A stretch of 30,698 nt of DNA from Escherichia coli (GCF_003334785.1 NZ_QOWV01000028.1), one strand, 5' to 3'; shown: positions 20,293-28,300, counted from the first letter of the stretch. The notes: a model not told the origin generated them from the sequence alone. Translations and numbers: made by a program.

Positions 20293-20455
20293 GGGTAGGC
20301 CTGATAAGACGCGTCAGCGTCGCATCAGGCATCTGAGCATGGTGTCGGATGCGACGCGAGCGCCTTATCCGACCTACGGTTCAGGTCCGTAGGCATGATA
20401 AAACGCGTCAGCGTCGCATCAGGCATCGGCACACAGTGCCGGATGCACCGCGCGA
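20293..20455. repeat. REP/BIME cluster between prpE (3' end) and the codBA promoter
   Basis: Repeated gtaggcctgataagacgcgtcagcgtcgcatcaggcat and gtcggatgcgacgcgagcgccttatccgacctac type palindromes read directly. Confidence 0.85.
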
Positions 20456-20471
20456 CGCATCCGACAATAAC

Positions 20472-22358
20472 CTACTCTTCCATCGCCTGGCGGATCTGAT
20501 CCAACGACGCAGGATCATCAATGGTCGTCAGATCTCCAGGATCGCGTCCTTCGCAAATCGCCTGGATCGTGCGGCGCAGCATTTTTCCGGATCGCGTTTT
20601 TGGCAATTGCGAGACAAACCAGACGTGCGCCGGGCGGCCAAAGTTGCCAATCTGGCTGTCCACCAGCGCCATAATCGCCTTCTCTTGCGAGTGCGCCACA
20701 TCACGATCTTCCAGACTGTCGCTCTCTTTCGGAATGACAAACGCCACCGCCACCTGCCCTTTCAGCGCATCTTTCACCCCAACCACCGCCACTTCGGCAA
20801 CGCCCGGATGGCTGGAGATACTCTCTTCAATCTCGCGCGTCCCCAGCCGATGCCCGGCAACGTTAATTACATCGTCAGTGCGCCCGAGAATAAAGTGATA
20901 ACCGTCAGCGTCACGGATGCCCCAGTCAAAGGTGGCGTACACCGGGCGGGAAAACAGCGACCAGTAAGTCTTCACAAAGCGGCCGTCGTCGCCCCAGATG
21001 GTCTGAATACACCCCGGCGGCAGCGGCCCTTCCACCACCAGCATCCCTTTCTCGTTGACGCCACACGGTTCGCCGGTGACTTCATTAAGCAACTGCACGT
21101 TATAGCCATACATCGGCACACCGGGGCTTCCCAGACGCGTCGGCCTGTCGTCCAGACCGCGAGCAATCGCCATAATCGGCCAGCCGGATTCGGTCTGCCA
21201 GTAGTTGTCGATGACCGGCACATCCAGCGTATTGCTCACCCAACTGGCGGTCGGCTCGTCCAGCGGTTCTCCAGCCAGATAGAGCACTTCCAGCGACGAG
21301 AGATCGTGTTTGCGAATTTCAGCGGTAGGGAATTTTTTCAGCACGCGAATGGCGGTCGGCGCTGAGAACATCCGGCTAACCTGATATTTCTCGACGATTT
21401 TCCACCACACGCCGCAGTCCGGCCAGGTCGGCAATCCTTCGTAAACGATAGTCGCCATCCCCGCCAGCAGCGGCGCGTAAACGATATACGAATGCCCCAC
21501 CACCCAGCCGATATCCGATGCGCAAAAGAACACGCTGCCCGCTTTGCCGCCAAAAATGGTGTCCATCGAGGTCGCCAGCGCCACCGCATATCCGCCGACG
21601 TCACGCTGCACGCCTTTAGGTTTGCCGGTCGTGCCGGAAGTGTAGAGAATGCAGGAGGTTTCGTTGGATTCCAGCCACGCCACCGGTACCCGCGCGCCGA
21701 TGTGTTGATGGCGCAACGACGCGAAATCGACATCCCGCCCGCTGACGCGCGCCATTTTCGCCAGCCCGCGATCCACCAGCAAAACATGGCGTGGCTGGTG
21801 CTGCGCCTGACTTATCGCATCGTCGAGCAATTTTTTATAGGGAATGATTTTGCCACCGCGCGCTCCGGCATCAGCCGAGACAATCAGCACCGGTTTAGCG
21901 TCATCAATTCGCGCCGCCACGCTGTGCGAGGCAAATCCACCAAACACCACCGAGTGAATAGCGCCAATGCGCGCGCAGGCCAGCAGAGTAATATGCGCTT
22001 CGGCAATCATCGGCATATACACCAGCACCCGATCGCCGCGCTGCACACCCAATGAACGCAACATTGAGGCCACCGCGTTCACTTCGTCATGCAGCTGACG
22101 AAAGGTAAAGGTGCGCTCTTCTTCTGTTTCCGAAGAGACGGCAATCAGCGCCAGCGCCTCTGGCTGTTTCTCCAGCCAGCGGTCGATGGCGTTGTGGCAC
22201 AAGTTGGTTCGGCCTTCACAAAACCAACGGGCAAACGGCGGATTGCTGTGATCGAGCGTTTGCGTAAAGGGCGTCTGCCAGTCAATACGCCGGGCCTGCT
22301 CGGCCCAGAACTGCTCCGGTTCGTTAATCGAACGCTGATAAAATTCGCTAAAAGACAT
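20472..22358 (-). CDS. prpE: propionyl-CoA synthetase (acyl-CoA ligase, AMP-forming)
   Basis: ORF 628 aa MSFSEFYQRSINEPEQFWAEQARRIDWQTPF... with the YTSGTTGKPKG AMP-binding motif; canonical PrpE length. Confidence 0.96.
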   Translation of the reverse strand: MSFSEFYQRSINEPEQFWAEQARRIDWQTPFTQTLDHSNPPFARWFCEGRTNLCHNAIDRWLEKQPEALALIAVSSETEEERTFTFRQLHDEVNAVASMLRSLGVQRGDRVLVYMPMIAEAHITLLACARIGAIHSVVFGGFASHSVAARIDDAKPVLIVSADAGARGGKIIPYKKLLDDAISQAQHQPRHVLLVDRGLAKMARVSGRDVDFASLRHQHIGARVPVAWLESNETSCILYTSGTTGKPKGVQRDVGGYAVALATSMDTIFGGKAGSVFFCASDIGWVVGHSYIVYAPLLAGMATIVYEGLPTWPDCGVWWKIVEKYQVSRMFSAPTAIRVLKKFPTAEIRKHDLSSLEVLYLAGEPLDEPTASWVSNTLDVPVIDNYWQTESGWPIMAIARGLDDRPTRLGSPGVPMYGYNVQLLNEVTGEPCGVNEKGMLVVEGPLPPGCIQTIWGDDGRFVKTYWSLFSRPVYATFDWGIRDADGYHFILGRTDDVINVAGHRLGTREIEESISSHPGVAEVAVVGVKDALKGQVAVAFVIPKESDSLEDRDVAHSQEKAIMALVDSQIGNFGRPAHVWFVSQLPKTRSGKMLRRTIQAICEGRDPGDLTTIDDPASLDQIRQAMEE

Positions 22359-22397: not shown

Positions 22398-23849
22398 TTA
22401 AATGACGTACAGGTCGAGATACTCATTGACCGGCATCTGTTCCAGGCGAGCTCTGTCGAGAGAAACCTCCAGAATGCGCTGCTGTTGGCGAGTCGGGAAC
22501 TGGCGCGCGAGATTGATTTTGAATTTATCGACCAGTTTCGGAATACCATCCTGACGGCGGCGAGCATGACCAATGGGGTACTCCACCACCACTTCTTCAA
22601 ATCGTGTGCCGTCGGTGAACTCAAGGGTAATGGCATTGGCGATGGCGCGTTTTTCCGGGTCGTGGTAGTCAGCGGTAAATGCCGGATCTTCAAAGCAATT
22701 GATCTTCTCGCGCAGGGCGTCAATGCGTTTATCTTGCGCAACGTTGTCCTCGTAATCTGCCGCCGTTAAGCGCCCGAATAGCAGCGGGATCGCCACCATG
22801 TACTGAATGCAGTGATCGCGGTCTGCCGGGTTATTGAGCGGCCCTTTTTTGTCGATGATGCGAATACAGGCTTCGTGGGTGCGAATGGTCACTTTTTCGA
22901 TATCCGCCGCCGTTTTGCCTGCTGCCTGCATCTGTTCATAGAGCGTCATCGCTGCTTCAACTGCCGTCTGGGAGTGGAACTCCGCCGGGAAGGAGATTTT
23001 GAACAGCACATTTTCCATAACGTAGGAACCGTACGGGCGCTGGAAGCGGAACGATTCACCTTTAAAGGAGACGTCGTAGAAGCCCCACACCGGCGCAGTC
23101 AGGGCTGACGGGTAACCCATTTCGCCCGTTTTCGCCATCAGTGCCAGACGTACCGCGCGGGAAGTGGCATCGCCCGCCGCCCAGGATTTACGCGTGCCGG
23201 TGTTCGGCGCATGGCGATAGGTGCGCAGCGACTGACCGTCCACCCACGCCAGCGAAACGGCGTTGAGAATTTCCTCGCGGGTCAGGCCGAGCATTTCGGC
23301 GACCACGGCGGTGGAAGCCACTTTCACTAACAGAACGTGGTCGAGGCCGACGCGGTTAAAGGAGTTTTCCAGCGCGATGCAGCCCTGAATTTCATGGGCT
23401 TTGATCATTGCGGTCAGCACCTGTTTCATGGTCAACGGCGCTTTGCCGCTGGCGACCGCGTTGCGCGAAAGCCAGTCCGCCGTTGCCAGAATGCCGCCGA
23501 GGTTGTCGGAAGGATGGCCCCACTCCGCCGCCAGCCAGGTATCGTTGAAATCGAGCCAGCGGATCATCGCGCCGATGTTAAATGCCGCCTGGACGGGGTC
23601 GAGCTGGAACTGAGTTCCGGGGACGCGCACGCCGTTGGGTACGACGGTGCCGGGAACAATTGGCCCCAGCAGTTTTTTACAGGCCGGGTATTCGAGAGCT
23701 TCCAGACCGCAGCCGAGCGTGTCGAGCAGGCAGTAATGTGCGGTGTCGTAGGCCACTTTAGAGCTGATTTCGTAGTTCATGACGTAATCGACGATATCAA
23801 CGATTTCACGATCAAATTCCGGGCGGATGTTGTTGATTTGAGCTGACAT
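22398..23849 (-). CDS. prpD: 2-methylcitrate dehydratase
   Basis: ORF 483 aa [52 protein letters not shown] (MmgE/PrpD family); canonical length. Confidence 0.96.
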
Positions 23850-23882: not shown

Positions 23883-25052
23883 TTACTGGCGCTTATCCAG
23901 CGCGACAAACGGGCGGTCTTCCGGTCCAACATAATTGGCGGAAGGACGGATAATTTTGTTGTCCTGACGTTGTTCGATAATGTGCGCCGCCCAGCCGGTG
24001 ACGCGGGCGATAACAAACAGTGGTGTGAACATCTCGGTGGGAACGCCCATCATGTTGTAGGAAACAGCAGAGAACCAGTCGAGATTGGGGAACATCTTTT
24101 TGCTCTCCCACATCACCGTTTCCAGGCGATCGGCGATGTTGTACATCTTCAGCGAGCCGCCTTCCTGCGAGAGCTGCTTCGCCACACGTTTAATCACCTG
24201 GTGGCGCGGGTCAGCGATGGTGTAAACCGGATGACCAAAACCAATGACCACTTCTTTGTTTTCCACGCGCTTGCGGATATCTGCTTCGGCTTCGTCCGGC
24301 GTTTCGTAGCGTTGCTGGATCTCCAGCGACACTTCATTCGCCCCGCCGTGTTTTGGCCCGCGCAGTGCGCCAATCGCGCCAATAATCGCGGAATACATAT
24401 CAGAGCCGGTGCCCGCAATCACCCGACTGGTAAAGGTGGAGGCGTTAAACTCGTGTTCGGCGTACAGCACCAGCGAGATATGCATCGCCTTTTCCCAGCT
24501 TTGCGATGGCTTTTCGCCGTGCAGCAGATGCAGGAAGTGACCGCCGATGGAGTCGTCATCGGTTTCCGGTTGGATGCGTTCGCCGTTGTGGCTGTAGTGA
24601 TACCAATAAAGGAGAATCGAGCTAAGCGACGCCAGCAGTTTGTCGGCAATATCCCGCGCGCCAGAGACGGTATGCCCCTCTTTTTCTGGCAGCGTGCAGC
24701 CGAGCGCGGAAACACCGGTGCGCATAACATCCATCGGGTGCGACGCCGCCGGTAAGGCTTCCAGCACGGTACGCACGTTAGCCGGTAAACCGCGCAGGGC
24801 TTTCAGTTTCGTTTTGTAAGCGGCGAGTTCGTCACGGGTCGGCAGTTTGCCGTGGATCAGCAGATGCGCCACTTCTTCAAATTCGCAATGTTTCGCCAGA
24901 TCAAGAATATCGTAGCCGCGGTAATGCAGGTCATTGCCACTTTTACCCACGGTGCAGAGCGCCGTATTGCCCGCCGGAACGCCAGAAAGTGCCACAGATT
25001 TTTTCGGTTTAATGACATGGGTACTGTTTTGCAGGATCGTTGTGTCGCTCAT
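23883..25052 (-). CDS. prpC: 2-methylcitrate synthase
   Basis: ORF 389 aa [52 protein letters not shown] (citrate synthase family); canonical length. Confidence 0.96.
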
Positions 25053-25084: not shown

Positions 25085-25560
25085 CGAGATTGTTGTCGGA
25101 TGCGACGCTATGCGTCTTATCCGACCTACAGTTCAGTTCACCCCGTAGGCCTGATAAGTCGCGTCAGCGGCGCATCAGGCATCGGTTGTCGGATGCGACG
25201 CTATGCGTCTTATCCGACCTACAGTTCAGTGCACCCCGTAGGCCTGATAAGTCGCGTCAGCGGCGCATCAGGCATCGGTTGTCGGATGCGACGCTATGCG
25301 TCTTATCCGACCTACAGTTCAGTGCACCCCGTAGGCCTGATAAGTCGCGTCAGCGGCGCATCAGGCATCGGTTGTCGGATGCGACGCTATGCGTCTTATC
25401 CGACCTACAGTTCAGTGCACCCCGTAGGCCTGATAAGTCACGTCAGCGGCGCATCAGGCATCGGTTGTCGGATGCGACGCCATCCGTCTTATCCGACCTA
25501 CAGTTCAGTGCACCTCGTAGGCCTGATAAGTCGCGTCAGCGACGCATCAGGCATCGGCTG
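25085..25560. repeat. BIME array: five tandem 93-bp units, each a head-to-head REP pair, between prpC and prpB
   Basis: Unit starts at 25085, 25178, 25271, 25364, 25457 (and a degenerate edge at 25550), giving a period of exactly 93 bp; units are near-identical with divergence at the array ends. The reverse-frame ORFs across it are repeat translations. Confidence 0.92.
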
Positions 25561-25584: not shown

Positions 25585-26475
25585 TTATTTCACCTGGCTA
25601 CGGGCAAACAGGTTGTCGAGCTTCTCTTCGTACTGGTAGTAGTTGATGCTTTCGTACAGCTCGTTGCGGGTCTGCATGGTGTCGATGACGCTTTTCTGCG
25701 TGCCTTCCTGGCGCAGGACGTTGTAGACATGTTCAGCGGCGCGGTTCATGGCGCGGAACGCTGAAAGTGGGTACAGCGCCATTGCGACATGGGCGCTGCG
25801 TAATTCGTCGGTGGTAAACAGCGGCGTGGCACCAAATTCGGTGATGTTGGCGAGGATCGGCACCTGCACCGCATCGGCAAACTGGCGGTACATGGCGAGT
25901 TCGGTAATCGCCTCCGGGAACAACATCTCGGCACCCGCTTCAACATAGGCCTGCGCACGCTCGATCGCCGCATCCAGCCCCTCTACCGCCAGAGCATCGG
26001 TGCGCGCCATGATCACAAAATCAGGATCGGTTTTCGCATCCACCGCCGCGCGGATCCGATCCACCATCTCTTCTTTCGAGACGATCGCTTTATTCGGACG
26101 ATGACCGCAGCGTTTCGCACCAACCTGATCTTCAATATGCAATCCTGCCGCACCGGCTTTAATCATCGATTTCACGGTGCGCGCCACGTTAAAGGCCGAA
26201 GAACCAAAACCGATATCCGCATCCACCAGCAGCGGCAGCGAACAAACGTCGGTGATACGGCGAATGTCGGTCAGCACATCATCAAGGGTAGAAATACCGA
26301 GATCGGGCAGCCCCAGCGAACCTGCCGCCACGCCACCGCCAGAAAGATAAATTGCCTGATATCCGGCACGCTGCGCCAACAGCGCATGATTAGCGTTGAT
26401 GGTGCCAACAATCTGCAATGGATTTTCTTTAGTCAGTGCAGCGCGAAACGCTTTACCTGGAGAGTGTAGAGACAT
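25585..26475 (-). CDS. prpB: 2-methylisocitrate lyase
   Basis: ORF 296 aa [60 protein letters not shown] (PEP mutase/isocitrate lyase family); canonical length. Confidence 0.96.
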
Positions 26476-26522
26476 AGCCCATCCTTTGTTATCAACTTGT
26501 TATTTGCGTTGATAAAGACAAA

Positions 26523-26537
26523 GCAAGGGGTGTGCCA
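26523..26537 (-). promoter_or_regulatory. sigma-54 (-24/-12) promoter of prpBCDE: minus-strand TGGCAC-ACCCC-TTGC
   Basis: Plus strand reads gcaaggggtgtgcca, so the minus strand is TGGCACACCCCTTGC, a perfect match to the GG-N10-GC sigma-54 consensus about 48-62 bp upstream of the prpB ATG; an AT-rich bend/IHF-like tract follows at 26544-26590. Confidence 0.85.
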
Positions 26538-26610
26538 CAATTGCCTTAATAAAATTAAATGTTTAATTTCAATTTGTTAGAGATAAAGTCATGAACTAAT
26601 CCGCAAATAT

Positions 26611-26670
26611 GCGTTTCAGTTAACGTTTCAGGCAATGTTTCACCGCGTTTCATTGCAACAATTATGAAAC
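26611..26670. promoter_or_regulatory. Putative PrpR enhancer (upstream activating) sites: four direct GTTTCA repeats ending in the palindrome GTTTCAT-N10-ATGAAAC
   Basis: GTTTCA at 26613, 26625, 26637, 26647 and inverted TGAAAC at 26665; it sits in the prpR-prpB divergent region, about 90-150 bp upstream of the sigma-54 promoter, as expected for an enhancer-binding-protein site. Binding is inferred. Confidence 0.55.
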
Positions 26671-26713
26671 AAGACTAAACCCAATATTCGGTTTCTTAAC
26701 TTTGCGGTGCGCT

Positions 26714-28300
26714 ATGGCACATCCACCACGGCTTAATGACGACAAACCGGTTATCTGGACGGTATCTGTAACGCGCCTGTTCGAGCTGTTTCGCGATATC
26801 AGCCTCGAGTTTGATCACCTGGCGAACATTACCCCTATTCAGCTTGGCTTTGAAAAAGCAGTGACCTACATCCGCAAGAAACTGGCAAACGAACGCTGTG
26901 ACGCCATCATCGCGGCTGGCTCTAACGGCGCGTACCTGAAAAGCCGCCTGTCAGTGCCAGTTATTTTGATTAAACCGAGCGGCTACGATGTGTTACAGGC
27001 ACTGGCAAAAGCCGGAAAACTCACCTCTTCTATCGGCGTTGTCACCTATCAGGAAACCATTCCAGCGCTGGTGGCGTTTCAAAAAACCTTTAATTTGCGC
27101 CTCGACCAACGTAGCTACATTACCGAGGAAGACGCACGCGGGCAGATTAACGAGCTAAAAGCTAACGGCACCGAAGCGGTGGTCGGCGCAGGGCTGATTA
27201 CCGATTTGGCAGAAGAAGCCGGAATGACCGGAATTTTTATCTATTCCGCCGCCACCGTGCGCCAGGCGTTCAGCGATGCGCTGGATATGACGCGCATGTC
27301 GTTACGCCATAACACTCACGATGCCACCCGCAACGCCCTGCGTACTCGTTACGTGCTGGGCGATATGCTCGGTCAATCACCACAGATGGAACAAGTACGG
27401 CAGACTATTTTGCTGTATGCCCGCTCCAGTGCGGCGGTGTTGATTGAGGGGGAAACGGGGACGGGCAAAGAGCTGGCGGCCCAGGCGATTCATCGGGAAT
27501 ATTTTGCCCGCCACGATGCGCGACAGGGCAAAAAGTCGCATCCGTTTGTTGCCGTCAACTGCGGGGCGATTGCCGAATCGCTGCTGGAAGCAGAACTGTT
27601 TGGCTATGAGGAAGGGGCGTTTACCGGCTCGCGACGCGGAGGTCGCGCCGGGCTGTTCGAAATTGCCCACGGCGGTACGCTGTTTCTGGATGAGATTGGC
27701 GAAATGCCGCTACCTTTGCAGACCCGGCTGCTGCGGGTGCTGGAAGAAAAAGAGGTCACCCGCGTCGGCGGGCATCAGCCTGTTCCGGTAGATGTACGGG
27801 TCATTAGCGCCACTCACTGCAATCTGGAAGAAGATATGCAGCAAGGACGTTTTCGCCGTGATCTGTTTTATCGGCTGAGTATTTTGCGTCTGCAATTGCC
27901 ACCACTGCGCGAGCGGGTGGCGGATATTCTTCCGCTGGCGGAAAGCTTTTTGAAAGTGTCTCTGGCGGCGCTCTCCGCCCCATTTTCTGCTGCATTACGC
28001 CAGGGGTTACAGGCAAGTGAAACTGTGCTGCTGCACTACGACTGGCCAGGCAATATTCGTGAACTGCGCAATATGATGGAACGACTGGCGCTGTTTTTAA
28101 GTGTGGAACCGACGCCGGATTTAACGCCGCAGTTTATGCAACTGCTACTGCCGGAACTGGCGCGCGAGTCGGCGAAAACTCCCGCTCCACGCTTACTGAC
28201 ACCACAACAGGCACTGGAGAAATTTAATGGCGATAAAACAGCAGCGGCGAATTATTTAGGCATCAGCCGGACGACGTTCTGGCGGCGGCTGAAAAGCTGA
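26714..28300 (+). CDS. prpR: sigma-54-dependent transcriptional activator of the prp operon
   Basis: ORF track 532 aa from a TTG at 26702; canonical 528-aa PrpR begins [19 protein letters not shown] (ATG 26714); central AAA+ sigma-54 interaction domain (GETGTGKE Walker A, GAFTG motif) and C-terminal HTH. Confidence 0.94.

Follow-up and report, generated by a model that had tools for sequence, protein, structure and literature searches.

Organization of the prp locus

The stretch of DNA analyzed here (the window), 30,698 nucleotides from Escherichia coli (GCF_003334785.1 NZ_QOWV01000028.1), contains the prp locus, with prpE, prpD, prpC and prpB on the minus strand and prpR on the plus strand. 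Gene identities were assigned with NCBIfam equivalog models.

20475-22358, minus strand: prpE (NCBIfam equivalog)
22401-23849, minus strand: prpD (NCBIfam equivalog)
23886-25052, minus strand: prpC (NCBIfam equivalog)
25585-26475 including the stop codon, 25588-26475 by NCBIfam, minus strand: prpB, methylisocitrate lyase, first gene of prpBCDE (NF008455, TIGR02317 and the ORF list)
26714-28300, 26714-28297 by NCBIfam, plus strand: prpR, σ54 enhancer-binding protein (NF011953, TIGR02329)

The start of prpR agrees with the K-12 annotation, and the spacer between prpB and prpR occupies exactly 26476-26713, a distance of 238 bp. This spacer is base-for-base the same as that of K-12 MG1655, so that published K-12 work on PprpB applies to it directly, and a 401-bp query covering it (26400-26800) is matched by 5220 of 5426 complete E. 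coli genomes. An Rfam scan of the spacer matched no RNA family, and on this result an RNA-element explanation of the spacer was dropped. Within the operon, three tandem Rfam naRNA4 elements of the REP/BIME type, spaced ~93 bp apart on the minus strand (25148-25405), occupy most of the 535-bp prpB-prpC spacer; further naRNA4 copies lie downstream of prpE (20298-20374, minus strand) and at the start of the window (3-80, plus strand).

The product of prpR comprises a PrpR_N sensor domain, an AAA+ domain and a C-terminal helix-turn-helix (HTH). The AAA+ domain carries the sequence GAFTGS at residues 301-306 (window 27614-27631) rather than the canonical GAFTGA of the σ54 contact loop, a property of PrpR noted also in PMC3162934, and its Walker A motif reads GETGTGKE. 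Together with the NCBIfam PrpR hits, the GAFTGS motif and the HTH confirm a first-pass annotation of this DNA, which had described the divergent gene beside the spacer as encoding a σ54 enhancer-binding protein. Among 17 PrpR proteins, from E. coli to the Burkholderiales, with a C-terminal identity of 34-66%, the recognition helix LG(I/V)SRTT(L/F)WR(R/K) is invariant, and the linker that precedes it varies freely in both length and sequence.

The σ54 promoter of prpBCDE

The sequence TGGCAC-N5-TTGC occurs once in the 30.7-kb window, as TGGCACACCCCTTGC at 26537-26523 on the minus strand. With 0.18 matches expected by chance, this uniqueness alone is statistically weak. The -12 C of the element lies 47 bp 5' of the prpB ATG on the prpB sense strand, the correct orientation for a prpB promoter, and TGGCACACCCCTTGCT (26537-26522, minus strand) has zero mismatches to TGGCAC-N5-TTGCW, with 10 bp separating the GG of the -24 region from the GC of the -12 region. 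This geometry predicts that prpB transcription starts at ~26511, 12 bp past the -12 C.

26522-26538, minus strand: σ54 -24/-12 element GTGGCACACCCCTTGCT (identity to the ChIP-seq 17-mer, unique match, conservation)
26476-26511, minus strand: predicted prpB leader of ~36 nt (from the -24/-12 geometry)

The σ54 promoter is established by published experiments. A σ54 ChIP-seq peak in E. coli, OS01, has the motif GTGGCACACCCCTTGCT upstream of prpB, and its listed "distance 36" is consistent with the predicted leader (PMC4591121); a genomic SELEX (gSELEX) peak of the RpoN holoenzyme falls within the E. coli prpR/prpB spacer (PMC8743547). At the orthologous Salmonella site, TGGCATAGCCTTTGCTTT was bound in ChIP-chip experiments and prpBCDE was 45-fold RpoN-dependent (PMC3844500). 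An element of the TGGCAY-N5-TTGC type is present in all of the ~70 orthologous spacers and is invariant in 14/14 aligned enterobacterial spacers. In the orthologous spacers it lies 40-98 bp before the start codon of the divergent neighbor of prpR, which is prpB at most loci but a distant PrpB paralogue at a few others. Both the perfect σ54 element upstream of prpB and the assignment of the promoter to σ54, as given in the first-pass annotation, are borne out, the former by the exact, unique match and the ChIP-seq motif, the latter by the agreement with the E. coli ChIP-seq and RpoN gSELEX data.

A cluster of GTTTCA half-sites upstream of prpR

On the plus strand, GTTTCA begins at 26613, 26625, 26637 and 26647 (spacing of 12, 12 and 10 bp) and TGAAAC occupies 26665-26670, the last two copies forming GTTTCAT-N10-ATGAAAC at 26647-26670. 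Four direct GTTTCA repeats ending in this palindrome had been described at 26611-26670 from the first inspection of the sequence, and every one of these elements is present there. The description of the palindrome's interior as an N10 spacer calls for a refinement. In Entomohabitans, Pseudocitrobacter and Shimwellia a genuine TGAAAC stands opposite this segment, TTGCAACA, in the alignment, and the TGCAAC within the segment keeps the flanking purine/pyrimidine of the extended half-site consensus. Because the spacer thus probably holds a variant half-site, the array would consist of six sites rather than four repeats and a simple palindrome. With > and < denoting half-sites on the plus and minus strands and brackets a variant or degenerate site, the E. 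coli array is best read as > > > > (<) <, with gaps of 12, 12, 10, 7 and 11 bp.

26613-26618, plus strand: predicted PrpR half-site 1, GTTTCA in the context gCGTTTCAg (exact hexamer)
26625-26630, plus strand: predicted PrpR half-site 2, GTTTCA in the context aCGTTTCAg (exact; 14/14 enterobacterial spacers)
26637-26642, plus strand: predicted PrpR half-site 3, GTTTCA in the context aTGTTTCAc (exact hexamer)
26647-26652, plus strand: predicted PrpR half-site 4, GTTTCA in the context gCGTTTCAt, left arm of the palindrome (exact hexamer)
26654-26659, minus strand: predicted variant PrpR half-site 5, TGCAAC on the plus strand and GTTGCA on the minus strand (alignment and flanks)
26665-26670, minus strand: predicted PrpR half-site 6, TGAAAC on the plus strand (exact hexamer)
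26611-26671, no strand: PrpR upstream activating sequence, the predicted enhancer (hexamers, conservation and phasing)

The five exact half-sites and the variant one, at 26613-26670, lie 90-147 bp from the -12 C, and the predicted enhancer, counted from the inferred prpB start, covers about -100 to -160. The enhancer falls inside PPrp, a functional synthetic biosensor part that runs from ~26675 to ~26486 in window coordinates and gave a 59-fold response to propionate with PrpR supplied in trans (PMC9452892).

Repeats of a hexamer may arise by chance or from base composition, or may bind a factor other than PrpR, and in favor of such an explanation the whole window shows no over-representation of GTTTCA/TGAAAC (21 copies against 16.9 expected). 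Five of these 21 copies, however, lie within 58 bp. A cluster of this kind was obtained in 0/2000 first-order Markov simulations of the window, and its probability is ~1e-4 when the spacer's own composition is used.

Comparative analysis of the PrpR half-site

The enhancer consensus given for Salmonella PrpR in Table 1 of PMC4987338, which cites the DNase I footprint of Palacios & Escalante-Semerena 2004, is CGTTTCATGAAACG. This sequence is GTTTCA abutting its own reverse complement, and GTTTCA is therefore the half-site of the Salmonella consensus. We collected 80 loci from a one-genome-per-species collection with a profile of the PrpR N-terminal domain built from a 9-sequence alignment. These loci came from Escherichia, Citrobacter, Salmonella, Pluralibacter, Entomohabitans, Pseudocitrobacter, Shimwellia, Xenorhabdus, Photorhabdus and many Burkholderiales, and ~75 of the 80 contain a divergent prpB or distant PrpB paralogue. 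In the spacers of 22 gamma- and betaproteobacterial lineages, GTTTCA/TGAAAC ranks first of 2080 strand-collapsed hexamers, with 94 copies against 5.5 in shuffled sequences (maximum 13) and at least three copies in 21/22 lineages; the runner-up hexamers are overlapping shifts of GTTTCA. Clusters of at least three copies were located within 200 bp upstream of prpR in 73/73 cases, with none elsewhere in the 442 kb of loci. The local cluster that simulations never reproduced, the top rank of the hexamer in 22 lineages, the confinement of clusters to the region upstream of prpR and the agreement with the published PrpR consensus effectively refute the explanation by chance, composition or another factor. 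The PrpR site assignment, which had been put forward as an inference, is supported by the published half-site, the k-mer enrichment, the co-location with prpR, the helical phasing and the invariant recognition helix.

The extended half-site consensus is a-Y-GTTTCA-w. Half-sites in the same orientation are spaced by 11-12 bp in 25/51 cases and by 21-22 bp in 10/51, that is, by one or two helical turns, and convergent pairs are either 17-18 bp apart or abutting. Across 27 lineages the arrays generally have their forward sites toward the promoter and their reverse sites toward prpR, so that the two groups converge, and six is the commonest number of half-sites per array (11/27 lineages). The number ranges from 3 to 8, and "always six sites" was accordingly rejected as a universal rule.

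Constraint on individual half-sites

In the alignment of 14 enterobacterial spacers, ACGTTTCA (site 2), TTG(C/A)AACA (site 5) and ATGAAACA (site 6, 14/14) are invariant, and the distance between half-sites 2 and 6 is 40 bp in 13/14 spacers and 39 bp in a Pluralibacter metagenome-assembled genome (MAG). Sites 1, 3 and 4 vary, being degenerate or replaced in several genera: half-site 1 aligns with the near-cognate GTGTCA or GCTTCA in other Enterobacteriaceae, and half-site 3, which is shared with Entomohabitans, Shimwellia and Pluralibacter, reads ATTTCA in E. albertii and in Salmonella and Citrobacter gives way to an abutting TGAAAC. The loss of site 3 in E. albertii and the degeneracy of sites 1, 3 and 4 in some genera imply that not every repeat need be essential.

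These differences raise the possibility, which we regard as rather doubtful, that the functional enhancer consists of the conserved subset only, namely site 2 together with sites 5 and 6 in the invariant 40-bp frame, and that sites 1, 3 and perhaps 4 in E. coli do not belong to a cooperative platform, being instead copies that are weak, dispensable or in decay. In its favor, beyond the invariance of sites 2, 5 and 6 alone among the 14 genera and the replacements just described, Salmonella reportedly has two dyad-symmetric sites, located by DNase I footprinting in the work of Palacios & Escalante-Semerena 2004, and no iterated array. However, E. coli and other Escherichia, among them E. whittamii, all keep sites 1-4, and the whole enhancer block is more constrained than the neighboring spacer. 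In 87% of E. coli records the 70-bp enhancer block (26607-26676) is unchanged, and its identity never falls below 95%, whereas the adjacent 70 bp (26538-26607) are identical in only ~45%. This adjacent segment is unusually polymorphic: it is 90-95% identical in 667 E. coli records, and ~880 genomes keep the enhancer block yet have the segment too diverged for a megablast hit. Furthermore, the loss of a site is accompanied by another phased site close by, such that the count stays near 5-6, and a lack of function would not readily account for the helical phasing of the additional sites.

An IHF-like core between the promoter and the enhancer

The first-pass annotation had placed an "AT-rich bend" between the promoter and the repeats, and part of this proposal stands.

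26544-26590, no strand: AT-rich tract, 81% AT, between promoter and enhancer (composition)
26567-26579, plus strand: putative IHF-like core TTTCAATTTGTTA (WATCAANNNNTTR with one mismatch)

The tract is 81% AT in a window of 46% AT; it is the window's most AT-rich 47-bp segment and ranks in the top 0.08% of such segments. The putative integration host factor (IHF) core within it is located ~50 bp upstream of the -12 region, about halfway between that region and the first half-site. Another two matches with one mismatch each are found at 26553-26568, and a match to WATCAANNNNTTR in a lone sequence is not significant by itself. The core at 26567-26579 aligns across 14 Enterobacteriaceae, with sequences of the AATCAxxxxxTTA type outside E. 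coli, and same-strand IHF-like cores positioned at 0.45-0.65 of the promoter-enhancer gap occur in 14/21 lineages, where 0.5 would be expected and 1000 shuffles gave no more than 3. Several betaproteobacterial spacers of only 45-50% AT carry perfect IHF cores. AT-richness was rejected as a conserved feature because these spacers are not AT-rich yet retain the core, and what is conserved is thus the IHF-like core; the AT-rich tract itself is real in E. coli. In Salmonella, expression of prpBCDE requires ihf, a result of Palacios & Escalante-Semerena 2000 as relayed in PMC4987338 and PMC5566544.

The spacer of E. whittamii is largely rewritten, with the IHF-like core kept. A perfect match to the IHF consensus, TATCAACTTGTTA, is present at 26490-26502, downstream of the -12 region in the prpB leader, and lies within an 8-bp inverted repeat, TTATCAAC/GTTGATAA (26489-96 / 26508-15). 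The surrounding block, 26485-26515, shows conservation in Escherichia and Citrobacter and, in part, more widely. It could serve as a second IHF site, form a hairpin in the leader RNA or act in translation initiation.

The prpR side of the spacer

The distance from the end of the last half-site to the prpR ATG is 43 bp, and the enhancer therefore probably overlaps the prpR promoter, an arrangement that suggests autoregulation of prpR through the overlap. PrpR is described as a "dual regulator" in the K-12 annotation, and a single CRP site that serves both divergent promoters and overlaps the PrpR operator has been reported. It is conceivable on these grounds, if improbable, that the array is mainly an operator of the divergent prpR promoter, acting in autoregulation with CRP, and that activation of prpBCDE uses only part of it. 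An operator role is, however, compatible with an enhancer role and does not exclude it. The PPrp part behaves as a propionate-inducible σ54 promoter even when separated from prpR, and both the position of the array relative to the σ54 element and the mid-gap IHF core are conserved although the distance to prpR varies. Additionally, a scan of 26400-26800 found no recognizable σ70 promoter. The best match in the spacer to the CRP consensus TGTGA-N6-TCACA is 6/10, no better than background, and we therefore assign no CRP site. The evidence as a whole favors the array as the enhancer of prpBCDE.

Between the last half-site and the prpR start codon lies a near-perfect palindrome, AAACCCAATATTCGGTTT (26677-26694), which is conserved in Escherichia and Citrobacter and is a candidate for a prpR promoter or operator element or for a 5'-UTR hairpin.

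A model for activation of prpBCDE

Taken together, the spacer is very probably the native control region of prpBCDE, made up of a σ54 promoter, a PrpR array of six half-sites and an IHF bend midway between them. In this model, which is the textbook mechanism and has the most support, σ54 RNA polymerase would wait as a closed complex on TGGCAC-N5-TTGC (26537-26523). PrpR, encoded divergently and activated by 2-methylcitrate, would assemble on the six helically phased half-sites at 26613-26670, whose center lies ~130 bp upstream of the inferred start. IHF would bend the DNA at 26567-26579, roughly midway, such that the AAA+ ring of PrpR could meet the polymerase, and ATP hydrolysis would then drive opening of the promoter. 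The assignment of individual half-sites in E. coli, including the sixth, variant one, is a prediction from motif and alignment, and one HTH may occupy each half-site, as a long flexible linker would allow.

A more general proposal, which we offer tentatively and hold to be possible rather than probable, is that PrpR enhancers, unlike conventional dimer operators, are orientation-tolerant arrays of single half-sites at one-turn spacing, that six such sites template one hexamer, and that the IHF midpoint is a conserved rule. If this were true, the hexamer would take one tethered HTH per half-site, six sites being the commonest count, and the long, variable linker before the invariant recognition helix would let lineages change from dyads to direct repeats or back, as Salmonella and E. 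coli would illustrate, with function kept. The midpoint IHF bend would then be a design rule extending from the Enterobacterales to the Burkholderiales.

Comparison with other σ54-dependent control regions

The arrangement of a -24/-12 promoter with an upstream activating sequence more than 80 bp upstream is familiar from NtrC-glnAp2, nifH and Pu, and the prp region shares it; nifH and Pu also have an intervening IHF bend that aids looping, as proposed here for the prp region. NtrC binds 17-bp inverted repeats as dimers. PrpR half-sites, unlike these dimer sites, tolerate a change of orientation, which suggests more independent docking of the HTH.

The closest known system is the prpR-prpBCDE locus of Salmonella, which is orthologous to that of E. 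coli and likewise has a divergent prpR. Its control needs σ54, IHF and PrpR (Palacios & Escalante-Semerena 2000, as reported in citing papers). The σ54 element is in the same place (TGGCATAGCCTTTGC in Salmonella, TGGCACACCCCTTGC in E. coli), the PrpR enhancer is likewise built from GTTTCA/TGAAAC, and the prpR-proximal block, GTTTCATTGCAACAxTTATGAAAC, is almost identical in the two. The promoter-side half of the enhancer differs. Salmonella and Citrobacter have there an abutting dyad, GTTTCATGAAAC, whose left half is the counterpart of half-site 2, whereas E. coli has GTTTCAGGCAATGTTTCA, direct repeats 12 bp apart. The repeat upstream of this position is exact in E. coli and degenerate in Salmonella and Citrobacter, whose array reads (>) > < > (<) < in contrast to the > > > > (<) < of E. 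coli, and the gap from promoter to array is 113-127 bp compared with 90 bp in E. coli. The 14-bp dyad CGTTTCATGAAACG, in which GTTTCA is followed directly by TGAAAC, is absent in E. coli and other Escherichia; the abutting dyad is present in Citrobacter, in S. enterica arizonae and in a Pluralibacter MAG. The Salmonella prp system gives roughly threefold stronger output (PMC5566544), and the differences in dyad and gap might be related to this strength.

The enhancer of NorR at norVW has three dyad sites, all of which are required for the ATPase activity of the hexamer (Tucker et al. 2010, PMC2831303). Like the PrpR array, it serves a σ54 activator with six half-sites in ~60-70 bp upstream of the divergent regulator gene, and assembly of the NorR oligomer is templated by its sites. 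The NorR sites are three regular inverted repeats, whereas the PrpR array mixes direct and inverted half-sites at one-turn spacing and has 3-8 of them among lineages. The E. coli array, > > > > < < with gaps of 12, 12, 10, 7 and 11 bp, does not have the three-dyad form of NorR, and may work like it nonetheless.

The homologous PrpR at a prp locus of Xanthomonas citri binds GTTGCAA-N2-TTGCAAC, and its half-site TTGCAAC is required for binding (PMC12153269). The half-site GTTGCA differs from GTTTCA at a single base, and the variant E. coli site (26654-26659) has exactly this sequence. The Xanthomonas site differs in being a repressor-type single dyad in the prpB promoter, at which binding was unresponsive to 2-methylcitrate in vitro (PMC12153269).

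The prp control region, which switches on the E. coli genes for propionate catabolism, is already known and well characterized, and the understanding of prp regulation is unchanged by these results. The additions are modest and chiefly of use in engineering PprpB: a putative variant half-site as the sixth of the array, spacing by one helical turn, direct repeats in E. coli as opposed to the Salmonella dyad, and the extension of the midpoint IHF rule into the Betaproteobacteria. Curated regulon databases may already hold them. PprpB/PrpR is, in turn, a widely used propionate-inducible module for expression and biosensing (pPro vectors, gut propionate sensors), and a base-resolved map of half-sites, IHF core and -24/-12 element shows engineers which bases to keep when trimming the part. 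The map also serves the removal of catabolite repression and the tuning of output, for example by converting the E. coli direct repeats to the Salmonella dyad. The comparative set offers clean natural data on how enhancer-binding proteins tolerate rearranged half-sites.

Variation at other prpR loci

In several Oxalobacteraceae (Herminiimonas, Herbaspirillum, Duganella), prpR lies divergent to a gene whose product is only 36-40% identical to PrpB and represents a paralogue of the PEP-mutase/isocitrate-lyase family. The loci of our set with a PrpB paralogue (L034, L035, L037, L039-L042, L044, L049, L057 and L064) keep the σ54 element and the GTTTCA array wherever the spacer was analyzed. Four loci, L071, L073, L074 and L076 (Janthinobacterium, Xenorhabdus kozodoii and Glaciimonas), have neither an adjacent prpB nor an upstream GTTTCA cluster; they may be rearranged, or their PrpR homologues may be paralogous regulators with other targets.

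In 9/12 betaproteobacterial lineages (L033, L037, L038, L048, L052, L056, L064, L070 and L077) a single TGAAAC on the prpB sense strand, with unconserved flanks, occurs at a nearly fixed offset, ~24-26 nt past the -12 TTGC. This hexamer, which is absent in E. coli, sits just past the predicted transcription start and may represent a promoter-proximal PrpR contact or a negative site.
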